Part shown: piece after piece, positions 42,983 through 56,286 of the stretch
Numbering within the stretch: position 1 is the first letter of the stretch
How the letters are laid out: every line of letters begins with the position of its first letter
Assembly (NCBI RefSeq): GCF_046105845.1
Contig: NZ_CP151004.1
Direction: 5' to 3' (one strand)
Source: Escherichia coli
Lineage (GTDB): Bacteria > Pseudomonadota > Gammaproteobacteria > Enterobacterales > Enterobacteriaceae
DNA: 64,000 nucleotides
The notes under the pieces: model-generated
What the model was told of the DNA's origin: nothing
Seen by the model: only the letters and a program-made list of their open reading frames with translations
The model's database searches: none
Position numbers and translations under genes: made by a program

Positions 42983-51595
<8,613 letters not shown>

Positions 51596-51907
51596 GCTTA
51601 CCTTCCCTGAACGAGCTAACATAAATGCGCCCTTTCTAGCACAGCGAAAAAATGTAAATCCTGATAGCAATATGATTGAAAATTAATAAATTTTCGTTAA
51701 GCAGTTTTGGGTGTGGGTTGCAAGAGGGGAGACTACTGAATTACTCAAGTTTTGTAATCGAGGGGAAAATGGTGATGGCGTTCATAGCAAAACGCCCTCA
51801 ACCATAAAGGTCGAGGGCGCTTAAGATGTCAAAAACCCGCTATCCGTTAAAAAGCAATGCTCAACTAAGGTCAGTGACATTGCGCTAAAAAGCGAATTTT
51901 TAGAATT

Positions 51908-51983: not shown

Positions 51984-52083
51984 ATCGTGTGAACGGGGCG
52001 CATATTACTTAGCGGTACCTTGTCTGTCAACACTAAATTTCATAAGTCATTTCAATTGGTTAATTAATCCGCAAAGTTGTTAA

Positions 52084-52881
52084 TTAATGAACATTCGTCG
52101 CCGAAAACGAGTCTGTATCATTAGCGTGATGCAGTCTCTGCAAAGGATCTTGTTGATAAAATTGGCAGAAACGTTGCCACAATGAAGGGAAACGAGGAGC
52201 AAAAAGTTCTGGGGCGCTAAAGAAATATTCAGAAAGTACGGCAAAACATTCAGCAGGATCACTGGCAGCATAAGCATCGATGCTCGCCGCATTCTCGCCA
52301 ACTAATTCGATTTCTTCCTGAATATTGTTCATTGCAGCATGAAGATCGTGTTCCCAGCCAGCAACCTCACGCAACGGAATAAAGGGAACTCCGCTGGCGC
52401 GATCGCCATTACGGGTGTCCAGCTTATGAGCGACTTCATGAATAATCAGGTTAAAACCAGAAGCATCAAAAGAATCTTGTATATCCAACCAGTTCAAAAC
52501 GATAGGCCCTTGCTGCCAGCTCTGACCTGACTGAACAATACGTTGGTTATGCACCAAACCGATATCGTCTTCCCATTCGTCATCGACCACAAATGGCGCA
52601 GGATAAATTAAGACTTCATGAAAACCATCCAGCCATTCCAGTCCTAACTCCAGAACGGGAAGGCAAAATAGAAGTGCTATCCGGCAGCTTCTTAATGAAT
52701 CCAGTTCAAAGCCCTGTAAAGGAACAAGCCGCTTTTGCTGTAAAAAACGTTCGGCAAGAGTGACTAATTTGCTTTGTTCCTGTTCCGTCAGACACGTTAA
52801 AAGGGGGATCGATAGTGCTTCCTGCCAGGGCAGGGCAGTTTGATGTGCTGATTCTTGTACTTTCCAGGGCCACTTAATCAT
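52084..52881 (-). CDS. mtfA: MtfA, Mlc titration factor A (zinc peptidase-like)
   Basis: Internal start [23 protein letters not shown] gives 265 aa; HEVAH metalloprotease motif. Confidence 0.92.
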
Positions 52882-52974
52882 CGTTTTGCTCGCAAACTCG
52901 TCACTTGAACAAAATTGCACGGACAGGGACTGTTAAAATGCCAAATTTCCTGGCATCATGGCAACCATCTGAAC

Positions 52975-53064
52975 GGAGAGATGCCGGAGCGGCTGAACGG
53001 ACCGGTCTCGAAAACCGGAGTAGGGGCAACTCTACCGGGGGTTCAAATCCCCCTCTCTCCGCCA
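52975..53064 (+). tRNA. serU: tRNA-Ser (anticodon CGA), long variable arm
   Basis: GGAGAGATGCCGGAGCGGCTGAACGGACCGGTCTCGAAAACCGG...CCCCCTCTCTCCGCCA: class II tRNA with CGA anticodon and encoded CCA. Confidence 0.9.
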
Positions 53065-53611
53065 CTTTATCAATGACTTATCTCCCGACTTCCCGCCTTG
53101 CTTTTCCTAAACAGAACAATCGTAGAATATTCTTGAAGGGTTAGATCGTCACTGTTTTCTGTTCGATACTGTGACATTCAGCACTTGATTCGCTATGGAT
53201 CTGACAGGAAGGTTTCGAGCGAAAATGTGCAGTTATTCAGTCGTTTTCTTATCGGTCACCATTATTCTTTTAGACATTGATCCTACAAAGCTGCCGCAAA
53301 GTTGGTGGTGGGAACTGAAGTTGCGTAGAGAAGGGGTCAATAATTGAGCAAAAAAAGGAACGCGGCCGTCAGATTAAAGCCGCGGGACAAAGTCCATAAT
53401 TTCCAAGAGTTGTTGAATTTCCCAGCTTTTTTGAAAGCCTTTGTATCATACTAACAAGTAAAAAAGGTTTAAATACCAAAATTAACCTATATTTCTGGTT
53501 AGCTTTACCATGACAGATGACTTGCTCCTGGAGACATTGGCGCAGCCAGTCTGTATTGGTGAGTTGTGTATTTATTGTTCGCCGTTTTCTCAGTTTTTTC
53601 TACAGACATAA

Positions 53612-53645
53612 TAAAAAAGACACGTCTCAAGCATGAGCGTGTCTG
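53612..53645 (-). terminator. Rho-independent terminator downstream of zinT
   Basis: On the minus strand, hairpin agacacgctcatgcttgagacgtgtct followed by a T-run. Confidence 0.7.
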
Positions 53646-53732
53646 AGTTTGTCTTATTTATTTGTCTTGGTAAATTATTGTCGTTACTACCAGGCACTGT
53701 TCTGTTAAATAATTGAAGTCAGCGCAAAAAAA

Positions 53733-54383
53733 TCAATGAGACATCATCTCCTCGACCACTTCTTCGCTACTCAACTGATATGGATAATACGTTGGCCAGT
53801 TTTCCATTTCATTTAATAAAGATTGCTGTGAATCATTACCCATAAAAATGTGAAAATGAGATGATTTTCGTGGTGCAATTATATGATCGCTAAATTGAAT
53901 ATATTTAGGGGCTTTGCTTTCAGGATCTTTACATTCGAATAAGTAACGAACGCCTTTCTTGCCTGATTTATAGGTGAGTATTTTGTATCCATCGTAATCA
54001 TATTTACAGGATGTTGTTTCATTATTTCTATGGAATTCAACAATGCCGTCCTCAATGCCAATCATCTCGATATCTGTCACATAACCTTTGCGATAATAAT
54101 CTTTAATTTCAGCAAATGTTTTGGTTTTATCTGCATCCGCTTTCTTCTGAAAGACGGGGTCAAGTTTGCCACTTTGCAGTAAAGGATAAACGGATTGCCA
54201 GACTCCATCCCAGTCACTGAGCGTTCGGTTTTGTACATTGGCATCATCAAAAACACCATTAGCAGCTTTTTGTTCGACCTCTGTTAAGGGTTTGCCGTGT
54301 GAGTGATGACCATGCGAAAAGGCAGGAGCGCTAACAATAAAGACACCTAAAGCAACAGCCAGTTTATGAAGACGAATCGCCAA
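53733..54383 (-). CDS. zinT: ZinT (YodA) periplasmic zinc/cadmium-binding protein
   Basis: 216 aa with signal peptide and His-rich SHGHHSHGK segment. Confidence 0.93.
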
Positions 54384-54570
54384 AACAGTTTCCTCCAGAG
54401 TTAATGTATATGATGTGTAATGTTATATTGTAACATATAACAAAATGCAACAACTCTTAGGAGACAAGAGAATAGTTCTCTCAGGTGTGCTTATCTATCT
54501 TATTGAAATAAAATAAATTATGTCGATGATTTGAGGTTGATGACAAACGAAACATAACTTGATGTGATCT

Positions 54571-54609
54571 GCGTAGGCCGGATAGGGCGCTCGCGCCGCA
54601 TCCGGCAGG
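54571..54609. repeat. REP (repetitive extragenic palindromic) element
   Basis: gcgtaggccggatagggcgctcgcgccgcatccggcagg matches the enterobacterial REP consensus (CGTAGGCCGGATAAGGCG...GCCGCATCCGGCA). Confidence 0.75.
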
Positions 54610-54639
54610 GATAACGCGTACTTTGTCGGCAATATGAAG

Positions 54640-55275
54640 TTATACAGATAATTTGTTGTGAACCTGCTTGCGTAACCGGTTAAAAAGGGAACGCAACTTC
54701 TTATACCGTAAGGCTAAAAGCAGTACAGCCAGCCCAGCGTAGATGAGCGGCTGCGGTGAAATAATCTTCACTGACCACAGATAATGTATTGGGGCCAGGA
54801 TCGCGACAAGATAGACGAAATTATGCAACTGTTGCCAGTGCTTGCCGAGTTTTCGCTGCATCGCCTGGGTTGAAGTAAACGCTAAAGCAAGCAAAATAAC
54901 CCAGCTGATAATTCCTAACGTTAAATAAGGCCGGGTAATTAACTCCTTGCCTAATAACGCCAGATTATTCACGCCCAGCTCCAGTAATGCGTAACTGGTT
55001 AAATGCAGTGTCGCCCAGGCAAAGCACCATAAGCCTAACAGGCGGCGAGTGCGTATCAATAACGGCTGTTTTGCGTAGCGTGCCAGAGGTGTGATTAACA
55101 AGGTCGCCAGCAAAAATTTCAGTGCAGTGCGGCCAGTAAAATGCTGAATATCTTTCACCGGATCGGCACCCAATCCACCGTGATTAATCGCCCAGACCAG
55201 CCAGAGAAACGGCAACAATCCGGCAAGATGCAGGCAAACTTTCAGCCATGTCACCTGTTTTGCTGTCAGACGCAT
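54640..55275 (-). CDS. msrQ: MsrQ (YedZ) heme-binding membrane subunit of the periplasmic methionine sulfoxide reductase system
   Basis: 211 aa polytopic membrane protein immediately downstream of msrP. Confidence 0.9.

Positions 55276-56286
<1,011 letters not shown>

Follow-up and report, generated by a model that had tools for sequence, protein, structure and literature searches.

An Escherichia coli serU-zinT interval without yodB: one of two common alleles and probably the ancestral form of the site

Introduction

In Escherichia coli K-12 MG1655 (NC_000913.3), zinT (2041375-2042025) and the serine tRNA gene serU (2043468-2043557) are separated by a spacer of 1,442 bp that contains yodB (2042368-2042898; 531 bp), annotated as "putative cytochrome b561 YodB". 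Prophages are known at the serU gene, where yodB forms the flank, and serU carries islands in other strains (PMC9729726); the phage record KU052038 also gives a serU prophage site with a yodB flank. Our literature search on the function or distribution of yodB yielded nothing beyond this use as a flank of serU prophages. Temperate phages carry independently transcribed cargo genes, known as morons, between their modules, and relatives of YodB are found among such cargo (see below).

Here we analyse the serU-zinT interval in a 64,000-nt stretch (the window) of an E. coli genome (GCF_046105845.1, contig NZ_CP151004.1). A preliminary description of the window had placed yodB between zinT and serU in K-12, which is correct by the gene order of NC_000913.3, and had suggested that the gene may be deleted or replaced in this strain. 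We compared the interval with K-12, with other complete E. coli genomes and with outgroups, and we considered where the yodB of K-12-type strains could have come from.

Results

Gene order and breakpoints relative to K-12

The gene order around the interval is that of K-12 read in reverse: yeeJ, asnT, mtfA and serU, followed by zinT, msrQ, msrP, hiuH and hprR. The coordinates of the interval and its borders are listed in Table 1. The 216-aa product of zinT contains PF09223 and shares 98-99% identity with entries labelled "metal-binding protein ZinT [Escherichia coli]". The serU stretch shows no difference from K-12 in 52902-53201 (100% identity).

Table 1. Features of the serU-zinT interval and its borders, in window coordinates.
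Feature	Position	Strand	Remarks
serU, tRNA-Ser(CGA)	52975..53064	+	ARAGORN; Rfam tRNA, 57 bits
serU-zinT spacer	53065..53732		668 bp, exactly between the end of serU and the zinT stop codon
serU-proximal spacer, non-coding, common to both alleles	53065..53511	no strand	447 bp, 96.4% identical to K-12 2043467-2043021
Allele-specific 221 bp in place of the K-12 995-bp yodB segment	53512..53732	no strand	Breakpoints from blastn
zinT intrinsic terminator	53607..53644	-	Hairpin 53618-53644 and U-run 53607-53617
zinT, periplasmic metal-binding protein, right-hand anchor of the interval	53733..54383	-	216-aa ORF

The preliminary description had proposed aligning the interval with K-12, and this alignment gave sharp breakpoints, with yodB in the K-12 segment only. 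By blastn, window 52002-53511 corresponds to K-12 2044530-2043021 at 98.2% identity and window 53733-55300 to K-12 2042025-2040458 at 97.4%. Between these matching blocks there are 221 bp in the window (38% G+C) as against 995 bp in K-12 (2042026-2043020), which contain yodB. The 447 bp beside serU and the zinT terminator hairpin are common to the two sequences, and the 221 bp are otherwise unrelated to K-12. The zinT flank is only ~1% diverged from K-12, at one difference per 100 bp, as far as the stop codon itself; the boundary is therefore discrete and does not reflect gradual decay.

Two further differences from K-12 were observed outside the interval. The spacer between zinT and msrQ (window 54433-54641) is locally hypervariable, with 13 differences in 54433-54532 compared with 0-5 differences per 100 bp elsewhere, and it contains a REP-like palindrome (sub-threshold naRNA4 match at 54576-54641, 35.8 bits against a gathering score of 59.5). 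The frame of yeeJ (inverse autotransporter adhesin; window 42983-51670, minus strand) is up to 2,895 aa long, whereas the K-12 coordinates imply a shorter protein of ~2,339 aa; several near-identical internal repeat blocks in the window translation suggest an expansion in repeat number.

The interval contains neither yodB nor a relic of it

A tblastn search with K-12 YodB gave a best E value of 0.29 against the whole 64-kb window and of 1.9, over 14 aa, inside the interval. When the interval was compared with the K-12 995-bp segment by blastn at word size 7, the only match was a 30-nt hairpin match located outside the yodB coding sequence. The preliminary description had named a frame-shifted yodB relic as a finding that would speak against it; by blastn and tblastn, no pseudogene or relic of yodB was found in 53065-53732 at the nucleotide or the frame-shifted protein level. 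K-12 YodB matches PF01292 (prokaryotic cytochrome b561) at 3e-22, and the interval has no ORF of ~175-190 aa that matches this profile or K-12 YodB. Its nine short ORFs, all of 50 aa or less, have no Pfam match at E <= 0.1. The longest of them (50 aa, 53195-53347) stays open in K-12 and in another strain, but its amino-acid identity (88-90%) falls below the nucleotide identity of the same stretch (96%), and nothing in E. albertii corresponds to it. Judged by this pattern of conservation, the frame does not behave like a gene, and the short ORFs are not under protein-level constraint.

The annotation and RNA searches gave the same picture. PGAP places no gene between tRNA-Ser and zinT in the finished genomes of strains MEW (NZ_CM192120.1) and WP3-W18-ESBL-07, which have the yodB-free allele, and in a search of the interval with Rfam 15 only the tRNA passed a gathering score (a match to sX4, at 25.6 bits against a gathering score of 70, overlaps the tRNA). 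The earlier view that the 668 bp hold no yodB-like ORF, only a terminator and short frames, is thus borne out by tblastn, blastn and Pfam. We concluded that the interval is an ordinary non-coding spacer that comprises the sequence flanking serU downstream together with the zinT intrinsic terminator.

The zinT terminator in the two alleles

The terminator noted in the preliminary description proved by RNA folding to be a canonical intrinsic terminator. On the zinT strand, the hairpin is followed by UUUUUUAUUAU; its folding energy is -21.9 kcal/mol (z = -4.5), and none of 200 shuffled sequences was as stable. The features of a Rho-independent terminator are present, namely a G+C-rich stem-loop that passes directly into a U-run, lying past the zinT stop codon on the zinT strand. 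A scan for consensus promoter and terminator patterns was uninformative and missed this terminator, probably owing to a one-base bulge in the stem.

The hairpin lies ~87-88 nt past the zinT stop codon in the window and 92 nt past it in K-12 (window 53618-53645 against K-12 2042118-2042145, 83% identity over 30 nt), and it is also conserved in E. albertii. Unlike the window copy, the K-12 copy has no U-run (…GACGUGUCUGUAUAUUAAUAAG; K-12 2042099-2042189), and zinT transcription might, on this reading of the sequence, continue into yodB in K-12-type strains.

Two mutually exclusive alleles in the E. coli population

To place the window among other strains we searched 5,426 complete E. coli genomes at megablast sensitivity. 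The yodB gene was found in 3,114 of them (57%), including K-12, O157:H7, O111 and O145 strains, and the 221 bp of the window in 2,301 (42%), including ST131, Nissle 1917, MEW and WP3-W18-ESBL-07. A query joining yodB and the 221 bp matched 5,415 genomes, exactly the sum of 3,114 and 2,301; the two sets are therefore disjoint and the alleles mutually exclusive. It follows that genomes with the 221-bp allele have no yodB anywhere at this sensitivity. A search for yodB elsewhere in the genome had been suggested at the outset, and this union search answers it at population scale: none of the 2,301 carriers of the allele has a megablast-detectable yodB.

In 1,405 genomes the 221 bp are only 90-95% identical to the window. 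By its sequence divergence, the yodB-free allele is old and internally diverse. We concluded that the serU-zinT locus is a common and old two-allele polymorphism in gene content, already known in kind. The statement that yodB was "deleted or replaced in this strain" holds insofar as 221 bp stand in place of the 995 bp of K-12; it does not hold as a property of this strain, given the 2,301 genomes with the same allele, and the direction of change that it implies is addressed next.

Outgroups and the direction of change

A single scan of species-representative genomes with ZinT gave 80 loci, a set in which E. fergusonii, E. marmotae and E. ruysiae were absent; clustering of ZinT proteins at 90% placed all Escherichia ZinT in the E. 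coli cluster and gave no further outgroups. The type strain of E. albertii has the order hiuH-msrP-msrQ-zinT-[564 bp]-serU-mtfA, without yodB, and its spacer is colinear with that of the window from serU to zinT. The first ~220 bp beside serU are 75% identical to E. albertii, and the 221 bp of the window align locally with its spacer over positions 2-213 with a score of 35, compared with 10.1 +/- 1.4 for shuffled sequences (z = 17.6). Nothing in E. albertii corresponds significantly to the part of the K-12 segment that holds yodB (z = 2.9). Since the 221 bp are colinear with E. albertii, they are inherited sequence and not a deletion scar, and it is the K-12 form that lost them. The second outgroup, Escherichia sp. 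MOD1-EC7003, also has no yodB; it carries a larger deletion and an integrase island here and is uninformative on the former presence of the gene. No YodB homologue was present at 6 kb or less from zinT in any of 78 loci from other genera.

The E. albertii spacer, ~60-75% identical to that of the window overall, has no counterpart of window 53350-53461. These 112 bp occur in both E. coli alleles and contain a G+C-rich hairpin (GCGGCC…GCCGCG; -22.2 kcal/mol, z = -2.3); they may have entered E. coli as a small insertion or have been deleted from E. albertii. The arrangement zinT-yodB-serU-mtfA, at 99-100% protein identity to K-12, was also seen in metagenome-assembled contigs labelled "Bacillota bacterium" and "uncultured Bacteroides sp."; these look like E. 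coli contamination of the bins.

With these comparisons in hand, we consider it probable that the window represents an ancestral, never-occupied site and that K-12-type lineages gained a yodB cassette. In the K-12-type allele, the 995-bp segment would have replaced the zinT-proximal 221 bp and brought in yodB, a member of the cytochrome b561 family, together with its own upstream region. That the change was a gain in K-12-type lineages and that the cassette was of mobile origin are both inferred, the polarity being taken from one clean outgroup, E. albertii. The direction proposed in the preliminary description, loss in this strain, is accordingly the less likely one given the colinearity with E. 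albertii.

The suggestion made there can be taken to mean that yodB was ancestral and was then deleted, with the surrounding spacer replaced, in the lineage of this strain. The presence of yodB here in K-12 and in more than half of the complete genomes fits such a loss, as does the zinT terminator hairpin in both alleles, which are thus related by descent at least at that point. Against it, no relic of yodB is present, and the 221 bp are no scar but are colinear with the E. albertii spacer, so that E. albertii and several E. coli lineages would need to have lost the gene independently or to have exchanged the loss by transfer. The deep divergence of the empty allele within E. coli and the absence of a zinT-yodB link in the 78 loci of other genera also speak against it, and we regard ancestral presence followed by loss as unlikely.

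Relocation of yodB to another part of this genome is far less probable still. The direct reading covers 64 kb of the genome, and YodB-like genes do occupy other chromosomal or prophage sites in some enterobacteria, including a 61%-identical copy in an E. coli. But neither the tblastn search of the window nor the union search of the allele carriers found yodB, 17 of 17 sampled yodB-free rows had a single matching place, and a distant paralogue (<85% nucleotide identity) outside the window would count as a gene other than yodB. We can practically dismiss an artefact of assembly or sequencing, such as a collapsed region, as the same arrangement is present in thousands of independently finished genomes and in nearly identical form in strain MEW.

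serU as an integration site

In this strain serU is intact, with no attached island or integrase. No integrase ORF or island was found directly 3' of the tRNA gene, which is not the picture of a tRNA-borne island; serU adjoins at once the spacer that is common to K-12 and E. albertii. Many other E. coli genomes match the window here only from 53003 (tRNA nt 29, in the anticodon stem) or from 53051 (tRNA nt 77, in the T arm) onwards; the two break points indicate two classes of elements integrated into serU. A tyrosine integrase is present on the zinT-facing side of serU in Nissle 1917 and in Escherichia sp. MOD1-EC7003, a site that is unoccupied in the window.

We also considered whether yodB could be a remnant of a prophage integrated into serU. 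This origin was rejected: the K-12-specific segment is separated from serU by 447 bp of ancestral spacer, which puts the K-12 yodB ~570 bp from serU and away from its attachment site.

A possible source of yodB

Apart from partial entries, we found no relatives of YodB between 99% identity (E. coli) and 77%. The nearest full-length relatives outside E. coli are 72-77% identical and occur in Citrobacter, Hafnia and some Salmonella. In prophages, two types of relative (76% identity) occupy the space that separates the lysis cassette from the HNH/terminase genes, each as a lone gene on the opposite strand, and the 61%-identical relative found in an E. coli has phage lysis remnants next to it. Genes in such prophage cargo slots (61-77% identity overall) were seen in Citrobacter and in metagenome contigs. 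A chromosomal copy in Citrobacter lies near a Bor-like gene, and a Salmonella copy has yet another context.

In one prophage type, the homology to the K-12 segment at the nucleotide level continues past the yodB start codon for 88 bp upstream; with this exception, the homology to the Citrobacter and Salmonella loci is confined to the coding sequence. The moved unit thus seems to include the upstream region of yodB itself. The gene is AT-rich, with 42% G+C compared with 47% for the window. Since cytochrome b561-family genes travel as temperate-phage cargo in enterobacteria, lateral acquisition of yodB is likely, and the prophage context, the upstream homology and the G+C content support this origin without proving it.

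The mode of entry is a separate matter. In K-12 the hairpin was kept at a similar distance from zinT, yet ~90 nt on either side of it cannot be aligned with the window. A hairpin kept amid unalignable sequence is not explained by plain insertion of the K-12 segment. It hints that the donor of the segment could have been a diverged relative with the order zinT-terminator-yodB already in place, the import being by homologous recombination. No donor with adjacent zinT and yodB was present among the 78 non-Escherichia loci.

Discussion

The serU-zinT interval described here differs from K-12 in a discrete segment, and the difference divides the species. With 57% of complete genomes carrying it, yodB is an accessory gene of E. 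coli, and therefore the K-12 gene order should not be assumed as the species default at serU-zinT. This variation in gene content is of an ordinary sort that thousands of public annotations show, and it matters little. The 2,301 yodB-free genomes are nevertheless natural knock-outs for the study of YodB, an uncharacterised cytochrome b561 paralogue, and lineages could be marked by the clean two-allele junction.

A fuller account of the locus can be offered tentatively. It is possible that the window is the empty ancestral site, that K-12-type E. coli captured a phage-derived yodB cassette behind zinT, that the U-run of the terminator was lost there, and that yodB came, perhaps, partly under Zur/zinc control. 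If capture from a phage and loss of the U-run took place in this way, strains like this one would be natural controls for YodB function in which yodB is null and the terminator is intact.

Among the systems described so far, the prophage relatives of YodB occupy the classic moron slot, between the lysis and HNH/terminase genes. The yodB of K-12 has no flanking phage genes and does not lie at the serU attachment site, and the window contains nothing of the moron kind. A close chromosomal counterpart is zinT-yodB-serU of MG1655 (b1973-b1975), whose flanking genes, order and orientation are those of the window (hiuH, msrP, msrQ and zinT on one side; serU, mtfA, asnT and yeeJ on the other). Nissle 1917 shares the yodB-free allele with the window but differs from it in having an integrase-bearing island on the serU side. 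The arrangement of the window itself, zinT, the same spacer and serU with no annotated gene between, is found in the yodB-free E. coli strains (Nissle 1917, ST131, MEW and WP3-W18-ESBL-07) and in E. albertii NBRC 107761. Over the 221 bp the B2 strains are 93-94% identical to the window, whereas strain MEW has the 221 bp at 100% identity and agrees with the window at 99.7% across 901 bp.
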